From IMG/VR virus record IMGVR_UViG_2737471863_000001: DNA of 33,695 nt. The stretch is one strand, 5' to 3'. The stretch comes from a virus (taxonomy: Duplodnaviria; Heunggongvirae; Uroviricota; Caudoviricetes). Below are positions 8,906-33,695 of this stretch, piece after piece; the stretch's first letter is position 1, and every line of letters begins with the position of its first letter. The translations under genes and the position numbers were made by a program. The notes beneath the pieces were generated by a model that was given only the letters and a program-made list of their open reading frames with translations, was not told where the DNA came from and did not search any database.

Positions 8906-9966
8906 GTGGCCACCGCCTTTGTTTTCTTCGTCTTCGCTTTCATTTCCGGCATGTCCAGTGATTCTGGCGGAACCAGCGCCAGAACCGTCATCCGTCCCTG
9001 TGCGCCATCCGTCCAGGTCACCCCGGATATCAGCCAGGTGGTTTTCAGGTTCTGAATGCTGTCGTCGATATCGACAAGGCGGTTGGTCTGCCACAACGGG
9101 CCGCTGTCGCCCTGTTCGCGCCAGCCTGCCACCGTGATTTCCGTCGTGCGGGATTCCCCCAGCATCCGGGCTTTGTACCATTCCCCGCGAATGCTGGCCC
9201 CGCCCACGGTCAGGCTGTCTTCATTGACCAGAATGCGCGGGCGGTAACGGTTAATTTCCGGGTCTTCGGTGATGTACTGGCGACCGCCCACCATCGAGGC
9301 AGGCTGGCTGTCCCACAGTTTGCCACCGGCACTGGTGGTACCCTTGATGATGTACTGGCTGTTACGCTCCCGCCAGCTGAAGCGCCCACGGGCTGCGAGG
9401 ATATTTTTCCCCAGCACCAGTGACACACCCGCGCGAATGGAAGAGGCGCGGGTGATAATCAGGTTACCCGCCCCGTCAGACGTCAGCAGAACGCCGCGCT
9501 GTTTTGCCAGCCGGTCGAGCAGTTCAAAACCCGTTTCACCCTGTTCCAGAACGACGGACGCAAACGCCTCCCCGGTCGGGGTTTCCGTGATGACGGTTAT
9601 CCCGAACGGGCGGCAGACATCAGCCGCCACCTGTTCAAGCCGCACACCTTTCCATTTCCCGGACGAATGCACCACAGAGCAGTCAACCAGGTCGCCGGTT
9701 TTGTCGCGCCCCATGACGCGAATCTCCACGTTATCTGCGTCATAGCTGGGGATAAAATCATCGATATACCCCGTCAGCACGGTATCCGCGCCCAGCCTGA
9801 CCGTGCAGGGTTGCCCCTCACGAATTACGCGCGGTGCCGCTGCCGACCAGCGGGTTGTCACACTGAGATCAAACTCACCGGCAATCGCCTTCAGGGAACG
9901 ACTGACGGACATTTCCGTCCAGCCTTCCCACAGCTTGCCGTTAACGGTAAGAACAACAGATTCCAT
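8896..9966 (-). CDS. baseplate hub / tail protein (Mu Q/gp44-like, P2 gpD-like)
   Basis: 356 aa, ATG 9966 overlapping the P stop codon by one base. Confidence 0.7.
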   Translation of the reverse strand: MESVVLTVNGKLWEGWTEMSVSRSLKAIAGEFDLSVTTRWSAAAPRVIREGQPCTVRLGADTVLTGYIDDFIPSYDADNVEIRVMGRDKTGDLVDCSVVHSSGKWKGVRLEQVAADVCRPFGITVITETPTGEAFASVVLEQGETGFELLDRLAKQRGVLLTSDGAGNLIITRASSIRAGVSLVLGKNILAARGRFSWRERNSQYIIKGTTSAGGKLWDSQPASMVGGRQYITEDPEINRYRPRILVNEDSLTVGGASIRGEWYKARMLGESRTTEITVAGWREQGDSGPLWQTNRLVDIDDSIQNLKTTWLISGVTWTDGAQGRMTVLALVPPESLDMPEMKAKTKKTKAVATWD

Positions 9967-27160: not shown

Positions 27161-27610
27161 TTAAGGGCGTCGTGGCGGACGACGAACGGGGTGAGGCAGG
27201 TTCGGGGAGGGGTAAAACAAATCCGGCTGGTATTTATTGCGCTCCAGACGTCGCATCCGTTTGATGGCCTTGTAGACGGTTTTATACGTCACTCCGTAAC
27301 GCTGAACCAGTTCAGGAATATTATGGCCGTTAAAATCACGCCAGATACGCATATCCCGGACAAGATTCTCCAGAATATTCCCCCTCGGAACATAAACCTG
27401 CATCCCGCCGATATGGCGACAAATCGCCACAACCAGCTCAAGGGAATGAGCAGGGTCTGCGCCAATCCGGGCCAGCTCTTTACGCAGCAGTGCGTTCAGT
27501 TCAGAAAGTAACGCCGGATAAGCGGTGTTTTCCTGGTAATCATGAAGATATTCCAGAACGCTGTCGTCCCGGAGGTCTTCGAATAAATCCTGCTCTTTCA
27601 TCTGTTTCAT
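27161..27610 (-). CDS. Mor/C-family transcription activator (cannot say whether Mor or C orthologue)
   Basis: 149 aa, ATG 27610 overlapping the gemA stop (ATGA); N-terminal acidic region and C-terminal HTH VYKAIKRMRRLE; sits between gemA and lys. Confidence 0.7.
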   Translation of the reverse strand: MKQMKEQDLFEDLRDDSVLEYLHDYQENTAYPALLSELNALLRKELARIGADPAHSLELVVAICRHIGGMQVYVPRGNILENLVRDMRIWRDFNGHNIPELVQRYGVTYKTVYKAIKRMRRLERNKYQPDLFYPSPNLPHPVRRPPRRP

Positions 27611-28158
27611 ACAGCAATTCTCCCGCTGTTTCGTGCGCGGGCATACGCACTGGTCAGTGCATCATAGCCGCGCAGTTCCCGCCCGGATGGGCTTACAGGT
27701 AAAGGCACACCATGTCGGGCAAAGGCTTCACGGATGCAGCGCATGTGCCACTGTTTGAGCGTTTCGAGCACAACCTGCAACGATTCCCCGTGACACCATG
27801 CCAGCGTGGAAACACCCTGACCGCCATTACGTCTGGCCGTCAGGCGTTCAACGTATTTGTCCAGCGCGGCGTCGCTGATATCGGATACGAAACCATCAAG
27901 AAACATCTGCTGCCAGATTTTATAAATCTTCTCGCGCGGTGTGACATGCCCCTTAAAGCGACGGCGGGGATGTTTATTCTGCTTTTTAAAACCGCGCTCT
28001 TTCATGGCATCGAGCACTTGTTCCAGTTGTGCAACGGACAGCTCGCGGCAACTGGTTTTGCCCGTGCACTGCACCAGAAAGGCGCGGTAAGTGTCATCGT
28101 CGAGGTGCAACTCCCGGCGGGCAACATGAATTAATTTAATCAGGGATGTGCGACTCAT
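27607..28158 (-). CDS. gemA: GemA-like protein (Mu gp16 family)
   Basis: Start taken at ATG 28158 (AAGGAGA SD), 183 aa; N-terminus MSRTSLIKLIHVARRELHLDDDTYRAF is characteristic of the gp16/GemA family. Confidence 0.6.
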   Translation of the reverse strand: MSRTSLIKLIHVARRELHLDDDTYRAFLVQCTGKTSCRELSVAQLEQVLDAMKERGFKKQNKHPRRRFKGHVTPREKIYKIWQQMFLDGFVSDISDAALDKYVERLTARRNGGQGVSTLAWCHGESLQVVLETLKQWHMRCIREAFARHGVPLPVSPSGRELRGYDALTSAYARARNSGRIAV

Positions 28159-28525
28159 TTTGCCCCATCTCCTTAATGCAGTGTTTTTCGACCCATGCCA
28201 CACGAGCAGAATTCAGGTGGCATCTGTCATGCAGGCATTCATCATGGTAGTGCACGTTATCTACATTAAATGGCAGGGATTCATCCAGCCCACTCGCGAC
28301 AAAATCCGCATGTAATTGTTCTAGCGCAGCCTCGCTGTCTGCTCCGATTGATTCAAAATAGTCATAAACATTGGCGCATAATCCGACTCCCCGAATAAAC
28401 CCTTCCCCTTCCGTTTCTTGCGCTCCGTTTTTTAACCACTGGTTATAGGCGACATAAAAATCATAAAGATGTTTTCTGGTGCTGGCGGATGCGGATTTAA
28501 TTTCATTTTTCTCTGCGTTATTCAT
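28136..28525 (-). CDS. hypothetical early-region protein
   Basis: 129 aa, ATG 28525; acidic, Cys/His-containing C-terminus; no family recognised. Confidence 0.4.
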   Translation of the reverse strand: MNNAEKNEIKSASASTRKHLYDFYVAYNQWLKNGAQETEGEGFIRGVGLCANVYDYFESIGADSEAALEQLHADFVASGLDESLPFNVDNVHYHDECLHDRCHLNSARVAWVEKHCIKEMGQNESHIPD

Positions 28526-28700
28526 TTCTTAATACCTCTTCGCAATAAAAGATTTCATTGGGATAATGTTTTTGTATGCGCTCCATCACCTGCATACATG
28601 CCTGCTCGGTGGGCCAGATTTTTTCCGTTACAGGGATGGCATCACAGGCATCATTCCCGCAGGTGCCAACCAGCAGGACAAAGCCAATTGACTTAATCAT
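28518..28700 (-). CDS. small Cys-rich protein with hydrophobic N-terminus (possibly exported/lipoprotein-like)
   Basis: 60 aa from ATG 28700, coupled to the upstream stop (ATGATTAA); six Cys; track ORF opens at GTG 28796 inside the previous gene. Confidence 0.3.
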   Translation of the reverse strand: MIKSIGFVLLVGTCGNDACDAIPVTEKIWPTEQACMQVMERIQKHYPNEIFYCEEVLRNE

Positions 28701-29235
28701 GTTCACTGACTTCCTGTGTTGCGGCCGGAGCTGGTGAATAATCAAGAATGAGATAGCGCATGACGTGGTCGGTGATATTCCAGCCACTGGAACCACAAAT
28801 AAAGCGCCCCAGCCGGATATCGATATACGCCATCACAAAACGGGGCATTCCCTGTTTGCACATCTCGTCATCCACTTCAGCAACGATGTAAACCGACTCG
28901 CAGGTCAGTACGCCTGTCGCAAATTCTTTTGCCAGTGCCGGAATGGCATTGCCTTCCAGCCAGGGCAAAGAGCGGCGGAACGCGCACCATTGAGCATCAT
29001 CAACATCGGGGTGTTCCGTTGTTGCGTTTCGTCTTACAGGAGGCGTCGGACGAGGGCGCGGAACGTCATAAAATCCGTTGCATTCAGTGAGAACTCCGGC
29101 ATCAACCGCATCACGCAGGAAATACACCATTGAGGAAGGTGGCATCTTCATTTTTTCAGCCAGAACACCACAGGTCAGACGCCCGTAAGTCCGTAATAAT
29201 GTGCTGACACCGTTCAAAACTTTTGCATCAACCAT
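28693..29235 (-). CDS. hypothetical early-region protein (possible N-terminal winged-helix)
   Basis: 180 aa, ATG 29235 with AAGGAA SD; first gene after the 99-bp spacer downstream of gam. Confidence 0.45.
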   Translation of the reverse strand: MVDAKVLNGVSTLLRTYGRLTCGVLAEKMKMPPSSMVYFLRDAVDAGVLTECNGFYDVPRPRPTPPVRRNATTEHPDVDDAQWCAFRRSLPWLEGNAIPALAKEFATGVLTCESVYIVAEVDDEMCKQGMPRFVMAYIDIRLGRFICGSSGWNITDHVMRYLILDYSPAPAATQEVSEHD

Positions 29236-29334
29236 TTTTTTATTCCTTAGTAATCTGTTTCAGGCGCGAGCAATCCCCTGACGCATCGCGCCATAATTAA
29301 AAGAAAGTGAATTAATTAAATATTAATGGTGGTA

Positions 29335-29859
29335 TTAAATACCGGCTTCCTGTTCAAACGGAATAATGGAAAAATCTTCAATTCCAGACTTAACTGTAAT
29401 TCCGGCAACACCTGCGACCGCTTTCGGTTCCAGTAAAATCGCTTCCTTGTTGATTTCCTGTTTCGTGCGAATAAAGCGTTGCAGGCCAAGACGCTCCAGC
29501 GTTTCCATCACCGCATCCACACCGCGAATACTTACCGATGGTGGGCGCTGACGCCATGACACATCGCCGGTTACCAGGTTCGCCGTCTTCACCTTGCCGC
29601 CGTTCGTCAGTTCGTCGCGGTTCGCTTCACACCATCCCTGAACGCCTTTTGAAAGGGTTTCGATACTGGTTTTTAGCGGCGCAATCTGTGAGGCGTATTT
29701 CTCTGTAATTTCAGCGATAGCGTCATTCATTTCCGTTTCAAGTCGTGCCGCTTCGCGTTGCAGGTCACCAATCCGGCGGATATCACATACCACGGCATCG
29801 CGGGACTGTGGAACATAAGCCGCTGCGGCATTCTTGATTCGTTTTGCTGGTTTAGCCAT
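29335..29859 (-). CDS. gam: Gam host-nuclease inhibitor (DNA-end-binding, Ku-like)
   Basis: 174 aa, the Mu Gam length; ATG 29859 with AGGAG SD; sequence closely resembles recalled Mu Gam. Confidence 0.85.
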   Translation of the reverse strand: MAKPAKRIKNAAAAYVPQSRDAVVCDIRRIGDLQREAARLETEMNDAIAEITEKYASQIAPLKTSIETLSKGVQGWCEANRDELTNGGKVKTANLVTGDVSWRQRPPSVSIRGVDAVMETLERLGLQRFIRTKQEINKEAILLEPKAVAGVAGITVKSGIEDFSIIPFEQEAGI

Positions 29860-29879
29860 ATAAATAAAGCTCCTGTTAA

Positions 29880-30170
29880 TTAATATTCGCTGTATACAAT
29901 GCTGGATACAGCACGATTGCTTAATTCCATCTTTTGGGCAATGACATGAATAGCCAGCCCTTCTTTATAAAGTTCACGACACAAATATTTGTCGTGCTCA
30001 CTGACCCGGTATGCACACAACGATATTCCGTGCCTTCTGGCATGTGCCTGTAGGGCGGTTGGGGCAACGTTCAGTTTTTTCGCCATTTCCTCGACGGTCA
30101 TTTTCCCGACACTGGCTTCGATAAATTCCCGGTCTTCGCGTGACCATCTTTTGCGAGTGATTATCATCAT
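29880..30170 (-). CDS. small putative DNA-binding protein with helix-turn-helix-like segments
   Basis: 96 aa from ATG 30170 with AGGAGG SD; MTVEEMAKKLNVAPTALQAHARRHGI and LAIHVIAQKMELSNRAV resemble HTH motifs. Confidence 0.45.
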   Translation of the reverse strand: MMIITRKRWSREDREFIEASVGKMTVEEMAKKLNVAPTALQAHARRHGISLCAYRVSEHDKYLCRELYKEGLAIHVIAQKMELSNRAVSSIVYSEY

Positions 30171-30186
30171 GCCTCCTTCCCTGAAA

Positions 30187-30456
30187 TTAATGTTTGGCTG
30201 CATCCGGGTTATACCGGAATAACTCGCCTTCGGCTTCCAGCCCAAGTTCTCTGGCTGACTTCAACAACTCCTGGGTTGCTTTTTCAATAATTTCAGGAGC
30301 CATGCTCTTGATAATGCCTGCCATCACGTCATGCGGTCCGGTTTGCTCCTTAGGAGACTGTTCTTCCAGTTGCACACTCATTCCTACAAAGAAACCTCCT
30401 TTTTTCTGAAACTCAACATCTTCCATGCGGTTAAATTCAAAGATTACTTTTGCCAT
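30187..30456 (-). CDS. hypothetical early-region protein
   Basis: 89 aa from ATG 30456 with GAGGAA SD; track ORF opens at TTG 30510. Confidence 0.4.
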   Translation of the reverse strand: MAKVIFEFNRMEDVEFQKKGGFFVGMSVQLEEQSPKEQTGPHDVMAGIIKSMAPEIIEKATQELLKSARELGLEAEGELFRYNPDAAKH

Positions 30457-30488
30457 TTTGTTATTCCTCACAAATAAATAAGCCGTTA

Positions 30489-30716
30489 TTAACGCCAGAT
30501 AATCTGGCAACCATTAAGGCGGGCCGTCCATACGGAACGGGCAACCCCTGATTTATGCTCCATAATCCTGACAGCGTTTCTGACCAGCTCCGGTGGCGGG
30601 CAGGTAATTTCAAGCACCGGGCGGGCCACGCCCAGCCAGGATTCGTTGACGTGGCTGCCGCGCTCCTGTAACCAGCTCTTTACTTCCGTTGCCATTTTGA
30701 TATTCCGTGACATCAT
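30489..30716 (-). CDS. small protein in the position of Mu kil
   Basis: About 75 aa from ATG 30716 (AAGGAGA SD overlapping the B stop); assignment by position and size only. Confidence 0.35.
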
Positions 30717-30729
30717 GATTTCGCTCTCC

Positions 30730-31668
30730 TTACGTGCGCAGCAGGGTTGAAATATCAACGTCGAGGTCTAATTCACGGAAAGCCTGACGCAGATAATCTT
30801 CATTAACACGTTCACCTTTGCCGTGGGCGGTCATGGCCGCAAGGCGCAGCGAGTGGTTCAGGATGCGAAGTGCACCTGGTTTTTGCGCAATCTGCTGTAA
30901 TAATTCCCGCTCGTTTTCGCCGGTAATTTGCCAGGCATCCGCAATGGCCTTTACATCATCAATTTTGGTTTTATTGATTGCCGTCCGTTTGGCAATACGG
31001 GAAAACAGTCGGGCAAATTCAACCGTTCTGTTACCACCGGTCATGTTTGAATAAACGCGGTGATTCCCCATCAGAACAAGGCCAATACGGGCGGATTCCT
31101 GCAACAGGCGGAGTTCTTCCAGAACTTCAGCGCCAAGATGATCAGCTTCGTCGATAATGACCAGCCCCTGCGTACCTTCAAGGCGGCGTCGCAAAGCGCG
31201 GGAGAGCGGCCCTTTGCGGCGCGGTGCGTCATTCATTCCCAGTTCATACGCCAGTTCAGTGAGACATTCCAGAACACTGGCGCAGGATGGGGTAATGGTG
31301 ATCATCCAGACATTGTTATTGGTGCGACGAAATTCGCGGGCTGCTTCAGTTTTTCCCACACCTGGATTACCGCAGATAACAGAAATACTTTCAGTCAGAC
31401 TGGCAAAACGCATACTCGTCCAGATTTGGCGTGCTGTTCTGGTTTCCACAAAACGCGGTGGTTCTGGCAGCTCTGCGGCACGGTGATAGTTCTCCAGCCA
31501 GCGTTCCAGCGTCTGCGCAACACGTTCATTGTCGCCGTTGTACTTGTTATTCACGAATGCGCTTAACGTTCCTGCGGCCACGCCGGACTCGCGGGCAATT
31601 TGTGCATAAGTAGCTTTTTCACTTTCTACAAGCGTGCGCAGTCCTGCGCGAATATCGGAAATATTCAT
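30730..31668 (-). CDS. B: MuB-type ATP-dependent target DNA activator
   Basis: 312 aa, the Mu B length; Walker A motif [11 protein letters not shown] 31668 with GAGG SD; immediately downstream of A. Confidence 0.9.
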
Positions 31669-31706
31669 CTGAATAACCTCGTAATTAAATTTAGTTTAAA
31701 CGTTAA

Positions 31707-33695
31707 TTAAATGGCTTTTTTACGTCTGTTCTGTTCCAGAATATCCAGCGAATGATTCAGATATTCATCACGATCAGTTTCATATTCCTCATCGGGTTCC
31801 TGGTATTTCACCTGCACCGTGTTACCGGAAGGCCGGAAAATACCAACAACTCTTGATTCTGGTGCTGCTGGTTCGGCTATCTGCGGCAGCAGTTCAGCAA
31901 CTTCCAGCGCGTCCATTTGTTTCTGCGCCTTAATGGCTGCTTTAGTTGCAGATTTCAGTTGTTTCTGGCGGCGGCGATATTCACGGCCTGCCGCAGCATC
32001 ATTAAACGCAACAGGTGCCAGACATTCCGCTTCACAGATAAACCGACCGTCCAGGGTGTAGCAATAAACCGTGCTGTGTAGCTGCTGCGGATCAAATCTG
32101 ACCACAACTTTTTTCACGCCGGCATTCATTAACGCCATGTTGTAATAAACGTTTTTTGCACCTTTAAGGGAGCCGCCAACTTTAAGCGTAAACTCGCCTT
32201 TGCGTGAAACGTTCACCGCCTCGGCAGGCAGCAACAGCATCCGTTTTTGTTCTTCGGTCGGCTTACGCACAATCGTTCTGGCGTATTCACGCTCAAAAAC
32301 GTCATCAAACGAAAGTTTGCCTCCGCACATTTCTGTTTCACGACCTGTTCTGGCATTGAACATCGCAACACCTTCAGCAAGGGTTTTCAGAAACAGCTCT
32401 GCATCAACAGCACGGTCGCCATAGTTATCAGGTTTTGCCTGCGGATTTGGCCCCGTATATGCGCCAGCCAGTGCCGGATGCTTATCAACGTATTCCTCAA
32501 GCCCACCAACACCGAAAGCACGTTCAACAGGTTTTGCCTGGCCCCAGCCTTTACCGGCAACAACGCTTGTCCAGTGCATTTTCGCGCCCATCAGTAAAAA
32601 CAGCCCCTTTGGATCGTCCTCTTTCACCTTAAAGCGGTAACGATTGGGCGCGCCCCCCGTCAGCCATTTATTCGCTGCACCACGGGTGTTATCGATGGTG
32701 ATGTGAAAATCCTCCGGGATGCCGTAGCGTGTCACCACATCCATGAACGAGAGGCGAATTGAATCGATGTTCTCGCTTACATCGCAGCGCCAGCCCAGAA
32801 TTTTTCGTGTTTTCACATCCTGCCAGAACCATGTTTTCGGGCGGATCACATCACCGTTAAACCAGCGTACAAAAACGTTATGCAGATAACCGTCGCCGTT
32901 GATCCACTGCATGGCGTCCAGGTGTTCCACAGTTCGCTGTTGTGCCGGTATCAGATGCATCAGTGCATGTTCACCTTCACGGCAGGCAACAACCATTGCC
33001 TCGTCCAGTTGCTGAATCCGGCGAAAGGCCGTGGCACGGGAGGGAATACTCCAGCCATGCTCGCGGGCTGCCAGTTCCAGACGCTCATAACATTTGCGGA
33101 AGGCGGGTTTTTCTGGTCGCAGATAATCTGCAATCAGAAACTGCCAGGCATCCTCGTCAAATTCACTTTTGTGAACGTTGCGACGGGATGCACCACGTCC
33201 ATCAACAAGCGCAGCCGCCCAGTCAGGCTTCGCAAACTTCTGTACCTGGTAATATTTGTCTCGCAAAGTGGATGCGCTGACCTGGTAATGTCCTGCAACG
33301 GTCGCAAATGCCGTTTTCGTTGAAACCCCCTGGTTCAGCATTTCGTCTGCAGCCTGAACCGCAGGCAACCATTTTTCAGCAAGTCTGCGCTGGGAATCGC
33401 TGGCGTTATCCCATTTGCTCCACAGTGCCTCACGATCATAATCATGGGCTTCCAGCGTGGGGCGGGCGATTTCAAAACGGCCCTGGCTTGTTTCAATACC
33501 TCCTTGTTGCAATAAAATTTCAGCACGTAATGCAACAGGAAATGATTTGATATTGAATTCAAATGATACACCTTTAGTACCTGTAACTTGCCTAAACACC
33601 CAGCCTTCTCTTTGTGCCTTACGTGTAATGTTAGTTGCTTGCTTTGGCAAACCAGCAAAACCAAGCAATTCTTTCGCTGTATACCACTCTTTCAT
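31707..33695 (-). CDS. A: MuA-type DDE transposase
   Basis: 662 aa; ATG is the last 3 nt of the window (cat 33693-33695); most of the protein matches recalled Mu A, N-terminal about 70 aa differ. Confidence 0.9.

Follow-up and report, generated by a model that had tools for sequence, protein, structure and literature searches.

The window analysed here, the whole 33,695-nt stretch of DNA of IMG/VR virus record IMGVR_UViG_2737471863_000001 (Caudoviricetes), is a Mu-like prophage that runs from right to left, with the transposition, regulatory, and morphogenesis genes that were compared all on the minus strand. The gene for transposase A lies at 31707-33695 (minus strand) as an intact open reading frame of 662 aa, as compared with 663 aa for Mu A. 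Its ATG start codon is formed by the final 3 bases of the window, and c, ner, and the operators therefore lie beyond it. By alignment and phmmer, codons 1-73 (33477..33695, minus strand) are assigned to a winged helix-turn-helix domain, I-alpha, of the D108/SfMu allele; by Pfam and alignment, aa 74-662 (31707..33476, minus strand) comprise I-beta/I-gamma, the DDE core, and domain III with its MuB/ClpX-interacting tail. The partner of A, transposition protein B of 312 aa, is encoded at 30730..31668 (minus strand) and was recognised by the Pfam families Phage-MuB_C and AAA_22. Overlapping open reading frames in other frames or on the plus strand (33308-33664) were rejected as frame shadows of A; their similarity to Mu just tracks nucleotide conservation.

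Four Pfam families follow one another along A in the order of the Mu transposase, namely HTH_Tnp_Mu_1 (aa 8-141), HTH_Tnp_Mu_2 (aa 148-255), DDE_2 (aa 256-472, E=2e-136), and Mu-transpos_C (aa 485-555), and all four far exceed their gathering cut-offs. Residues D268, D335, and E391 are invariant columns in the alignment with the A proteins of Mu, D108, and SfMu, and we take them to be the catalytic D-D-E triad of MuA (D269, D336, and E392 in Mu). In phmmer searches, aa 1-75 match the structure of MuA 1-76 (PDB codes: 1TNS and 1TNT) with E=1.1e-13, and the N-terminus also matches, more weakly (E=1.2e-4), the DNA-binding domain of the Mu repressor (PDB codes: 1G4D and 1QPM). A single-sequence AlphaFold model of aa 1-85 contains strands at 4-6 and 33-37, helices at 7-11, 18-30, and 54-62, and a disordered segment at 40-49; its mean pLDDT is only 60, and as a rough placement only, the order of strands and helices fits a winged helix-turn-helix topology. 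Because of the match to 1TNS, the four Pfam domains in order, and the invariant DDE columns, aa 1-73 can be assigned to subdomain I-alpha of an intact Mu-type transposase. The gene encodes a full-length transposase, which is probably active.

The references for A were Mu (NC_000929, NP_050607.1), D108 (GQ357916, ACV50262.1), the classical heteroimmune relative of Mu, and SfMu (KP010268, AIY32302.1). The A protein of the window has its family, domain order, DDE triad, and the fold family of aa 1-75 in common with that of Mu. A preliminary description of this DNA, made from its letters alone, held that the first 70 or so residues differ from Mu A and that the remainder is near-identical, and pairwise alignment bears out both statements. 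The N-terminus is clearly not identical to that of Mu: over aa 1-73, identity is 30/73 with Mu (41%, with one 1-residue gap), 68/73 with D108 (93%), and 73/73 with SfMu (100%). Over aa 74-608, it is 534/535 with Mu (99.8%) and 533/535 with both D108 and SfMu. As many as 43 of the 51 differences between Mu and the window A fall within the first 73 of the 662 residues (hypergeometric P = 1.5e-39). The 16-residue motif with which the near-identical part was said to open begins at aa 74, and the limit given for the divergent region, 33485, agrees within 8 nt with the boundary set here at 33477 (aa 73).

The same discontinuity is seen in the nucleotide sequence. In blastn, the first 188 nt of the A gene could not be aligned to Mu, and the alignment starts at nt 189 (window position 33507, running downwards). 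When the left end of the prophage, as found in related copies, was compared in 100-nt bins, identity to Mu was 27-74% from c through the operators and ner into the 5' end of A; past nt ~1500 of the left end, which corresponds to A codon ~75, Mu, D108, and SfMu are all at least 94% identical, dropping again near the 3' end of A. Against SfMu, the bins are 96-100% identical through the first 1.6 kb, and beyond about nt 1600 mostly 94-100% through A, 83-88% near the 3' end of A, and 71-80% early in B. Against D108, the bins of the left end range from 46 to 93%.

SfMu is thus the nearest in the N-terminal region, where aa 1-73 are the same, the 5' 396 nt of A are 99.0% identical, and the 219 nt of I-alpha are 99-100% identical. 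However, its A differs from that of the window by 12 substitutions past aa 73, ten of them in aa 609-661, and at the level of megablast the two elements match only within 28736-33695. D108 has in common with the window both the type of N-terminus and the junction to a Mu-identical body, but its I-alpha differs from that of the window and SfMu by five substitutions (F13L, V33E, T38A, G66R, and R73Y), and the centre of its operator region has diverged. That the A of D108 departs from that of Mu at the N-terminus, as the preliminary description stated, has been known since 1986.

The type of the flank upstream of A was read from other chromosomal copies, in which A is identical at the protein level, rather than from the window itself. 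The identical protein occurs in 144 index blocks of the public collection, in independent assemblies, and on contigs at at least ten different chromosomal sites; in five complete E. coli genomes the A gene is 100% identical over 1,996 nt. In all of the ten copies inspected (10/10), two genes were called upstream of A at unchanged positions, namely c (174 aa, PF02316), directly upstream and divergently transcribed, and ner (73 aa, HTH_35). The left end of 1,266 bp, from the prophage terminus to the start of A, is identical in nine of the ten and carries 2 SNPs in the tenth. The copy in GCA_040347615.1 (L012) has 1 mismatch to the window in 11,989 nt, and the next-closest contig (L016) has 2; since the matched stretch covers part of a region that is only about 96% identical in the other copies, these two contigs can be placed in the same lineage as the window. 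We infer that the flank of this window matches the one seen in these near-identical copies.

The proteins of this flank are of the D108/SfMu type. The c protein of the RM11911 copy, the sequence of which is the same in GCA_040347615.1, is 99% identical to that of SfMu, 90% to that of D108, and 32% to that of Mu, although any identity to Mu c depends on the start chosen, i.e. on whether the 174-aa or the 196-aa form is used. Ner is 100, 99, and 52% identical to its counterparts in SfMu, D108, and Mu, respectively. Within the DNA-binding domain of the repressor, the window type differs from D108 by two substitutions. As for the start of Mu c, RefSeq (NC_000929 Mup01, 339-863) gives 174 aa from MAADGMPG; the frame extends upstream to 929, which yields the 196-aa form, and this form includes the WCSPQEIMAADG segment present in PDB 1G4D.

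The non-coding part of the flank also resembles D108. A palindrome, CCGTGAGCTAC-N8-GTAGCTCACGG, which is presumably the Ner binding site of D108, is found at 9718-9747 of the GCA_040347615.1 contig and at 996-1025 of D108, with an identical 11-bp inverted repeat, and a search for it in Mu found none. Between c and ner, a TGATTTCA-like repeat is present in five copies in the window type, six in D108, and none in Mu, the operator region of which carries CTTTTCAGTAAT repeats of its own. Both repeats are motifs derived here from the sequences, and TGATTTCA is not an established operator consensus; the counts therefore indicate only that D108 and the window type appear to share repeats absent from Mu. 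One TGAAATCA copy of D108 is missing from the c-ner intergenic region of the window type, and the centre of this region is only 74-84% identical to D108. A scan of the c-ner intergenic region with the IHF consensus returned only sites with one mismatch in the window type and in D108, and a perfect site in Mu. Examination of c, ner, and the operators for a match to the type of A had been proposed in the preliminary description; in the ten copies, c proved to be of the D108/SfMu type and Ner of the D108 type, and the Ner palindrome of D108 was present. Its suggestion of either a D108-type or a novel specificity is accordingly supported in the first part, with an I-alpha that is 93% identical to D108 and 100% to SfMu, and is not supported in the second, since the N-terminus is already present in the published SfMu.

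A third allele of I-alpha and repressor was found in E. coli E148 (NZ_AP024518.1, 4109248-4114312), where A starts with MQPQCNDWFSAKKLEG; its I-alpha is identical to that of phage PhiR68_1 (PV340575), a 2025 isolate. The A of PhiR68_1/E148 has the same architecture as the window A, a switch point at about aa 63-73, and an N-terminus that resembles its own repressor. It differs in that aa 1-73 are only about 53% identical, a 4-residue N-terminal extension is present, and c is 41% identical. A survey of 5,426 complete E. coli genomes found a D108/SfMu-type 5' end of A in 45 (five identical, 35 at 90-95%, and five at 80-90%) and a Mu-type 5' end in 25. In about 12 of the 5,426, the alignment to Mu starts only near nt 154 of A; E148 was the one examined among these, and it has the PhiR68_1-type allele.

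A second divergent patch lies at aa 609-641 of A, in domain III-beta (31773..31871, minus strand). Seven substitutions fall in aa 616-641, where Mu, D108, and SfMu are mutually identical, and their clustering has P ~6e-7 after allowing for the choice of window. The terminal RRKKAI is conserved. In the DNA, this patch is contiguous with the divergent 5' part of B, a protein that is 88-89% identical to its counterparts in SfMu (88%) and Mu; its substitutions are mostly in aa 16-98, with about 24 of them in this N-terminal domain (about 31375-31623, minus strand). Nucleotide identity is 71-89% in the A-tail/B patch versus 94-100% over the rest of A. Judged from these sequences, the two patches may form a co-varying module at the A-B interface.

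Over its whole length, the element is colinear with Mu and strongly mosaic, with window 1-27600 set apart from 27600-33695. At the protein level, identity to Mu is 82-93% for the homologues of A, B, Kil, Gam, gp11, and GemA, 96% for Mom, and 63% for Mor, whereas the terminase, portal, head, sheath, tube, baseplate, and tail proteins are only 27-50% identical. A megablast search of the late region against isolated phages returned none except a 72% match to Klebsiella phage Kp4866-3. Window 1-9 kb together with 27-33.7 kb differs from the XJ34 prophage by 1 mismatch and from the RM11911 prophage by about 36, mostly in kb 3-5; 9-27 kb, with the morphogenesis genes, is about 96% identical to both. 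No complete E. coli genome matched the window throughout, the central part reaching at most 96.8%. Such near-identical ends around a diverged centre suggest recombination between related prophages.

In related copies, the element ends in 5'-TG...CA-3', with TGTATTGATTCAC at the left and TGAGGCGGCGCACGAAAAAC at the right (reverse strand). The RM11911 copy occupies 4780-39932 of the extracted region, which gives an element of about 35.15 kb. Five-bp target duplications were seen in two copies, CGGGA in RM11911 and AACGC in XJ34. The copies with identical A occupy ten different insertion sites, at two of which an annotated host gene is split (gspE, mdtO). The presence of copies at at least ten sites, with an invariant left end and with 5-bp duplications in the two examined, indicates a recently active transposable phage. 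Two tandem fibre/chaperone pairs lie on one strand at the right end of the element, at 1583-6281 (minus strand): the first consists of a 331-aa fibre and a Caudo_TAP chaperone, and the second of an intact 874-aa open reading frame that carries a phage_tail_N domain, after which comes a DUF4376 protein. For the corresponding fibre genes, RefSeq gives incomplete pseudogenes in both RM11911 and XJ34, with about 2.2 kb left without annotation. No homologue of Mu gin and no invertible G segment were detected in the window.

The N-terminus of A is related to the repressor of the same phage. Residues 1-53 of A are identical to aa 5-57 of its own repressor at 32/53 positions (60%, E=7e-22), and 23% identical to Mu c. 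With the A N-terminus as query, tblastn finds two matches, A and c, in each of SfMu, D108, and PhiR68_1. In a matrix of similarities, the D108-type A N-terminus scores about equally against the E148-type repressor and against its own; a best match to the phage's own repressor therefore sets Mu apart from the others, and not D108 from E148. In Mu, repressor and transposase compete for the same DNA because the enhancer overlaps the operators; I-alpha must fit the operator set, and I-beta/gamma read the conserved ends. Operators O1-O3 are overlapped by the transpositional enhancer, in which an IHF site is flanked by two clusters of MuA sites, and separate regions of MuA domain I contact the ends and the enhancer (PMC3145075). 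Binding of the enhancer/operator by the N-terminal domain of A, as asserted in the preliminary description, is consistent with this work and with the match to 1TNS, the I-alpha of MuA. A relation between the A N-terminus and the repressor was reported for Mu and D108 by Harshey et al. 1985 and Mizuuchi et al. 1986, as these are listed in PMC3820752 (refs 51-52), and the title of the latter (Mizuuchi, Weisberg, and Mizuuchi 1986, NAR 14:3813; ref 52) names similar N-termini of transposase and repressor.

A probable scheme for the function and exchange of this domain can be described as follows. I-alpha, a paralogue of the DNA-binding domain in the phage's own c repressor, would recognise a transpositional enhancer situated about 1 kb from the left end, where it overlaps the repressor operators O1-O2. 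If so, A and c would read, and compete for, the same sites, and I-alpha would have to match the c-operator-ner region. The attL-proximal DNA, c, the operators/enhancer, ner, and the first ~63-73 codons of A are then probably inherited together as an exchangeable left-end module. The remaining part of A, which would bind the conserved ends, catalyse strand transfer, and contact MuB/ClpX, hardly differs among Mu, D108, and SfMu. This immunity/enhancer module would have its right-hand edge at the I-alpha/I-beta junction, where the switch is sharp.

We regard it as highly probable, from the sequence comparisons, that the A N-terminus is I-alpha in the D108/SfMu allelic form, that it belongs to such an exchangeable module, and that the module here is the SfMu variant of the D108 type. 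This assignment predicts that the prophage is heteroimmune with Mu and that its enhancer is of the D108 type. The DNA-binding specificity of I-alpha itself is deduced from its sequence, and homoimmunity with D108 may be presumed on the same grounds. A specificity identical to that of D108 is likely rather than certain, because I-alpha differs at five positions and the DNA-binding domain of the repressor at two, and identity falls to 74-84% in the centre of the intergenic region.

These same differences could be read another way, namely that the SfMu-type module has an immunity/enhancer specificity of its own, heteroimmune with both D108 and Mu, with substitutions that co-evolved with changed operators. 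[quoted passage not shown] However, I-alpha as a whole is 93% identical to D108, the DNA-binding region of the repressor differs at those two positions only, Ner is 99% identical with its palindromic site kept, and the TGATTTCA-like repeats on either side of the diverged centre are conserved. By analogy with Mu, the diverged centre would correspond to the IHF/spacer region and not to the operator repeats. A distinct specificity is therefore improbable. Equally doubtful is its stronger form, in which the SfMu-type left end would be a fourth specificity besides those of D108, Mu, and PhiR68_1, with V33E, T38A, and the two repressor changes retuned to the operator centre. A literature search for immunity tests of SfMu-type elements, including SfMu against D108, found none.

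Much less credible is divergence in place, i.e. rapid point substitution under positive selection without module exchange. A DNA-binding domain that tracks an immunity region could in principle evolve fast, but the 219 nt of I-alpha are 99-100% identical in SfMu, a phage that differs elsewhere: its late region is close to Mu, being mostly conserved (PMC4406740), whereas the late proteins of the window, those of the head and tail among them, are only 27-50% identical to those of Mu. The boundary is, moreover, abrupt and common to three allele types, and this is the signature of recombination between old alleles. Finally, the N-terminal difference could be non-biological (a chimeric assembly, a pseudogene remnant, or a misremembered Mu A), as the coincidence of the window end with the start codon might suggest a contig or assembly edge, but this is refuted by the intact 662-aa frame with all four transposase domains, the 100%-identical gene in five complete E. 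coli genomes, the identical protein in 144 index blocks and at at least ten chromosomal sites in independent assemblies, the 5-bp target duplications that flank prophage copies, and the 41% identity in aa 1-73 to the Mu reference, and it has practically no probability left.

Taken as the SfMu variant of the D108-type module, the left end is nothing new in kind. The A N-terminal allele is already known, being in GenBank through the characterised phage SfMu. Jakhetia and Verma (2015, PMC4406740) reported identities of 89% to D108 and 24% to Mu for SfMu c, and of 98 and 47%, respectively, for SfMu Ner. The D108-type immunity/enhancer module was published in 1986 and 2015, and the sole residual novelty would be a functional distinctness of the SfMu subtype from D108, for which we see little chance, given the conservation of Ner and its site, of the DNA-binding domains, and of the flanking repeats. 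Should a fourth specificity nevertheless prove true, SfMu-type and D108 left ends would provide a natural minimal-change pair for mapping the co-evolution of transposase and repressor on shared sites. For annotation, the value of the finding is that the prophage can be labelled as having D108/SfMu-type immunity. For the biology of the Mu-like phages, it is a textbook case of phage modularity, in which the first domain of the transposase is a paralogue of the repressor DNA-binding domain and travels with c-operator-ner, so that immunity would act on both transcription and transpososome assembly.
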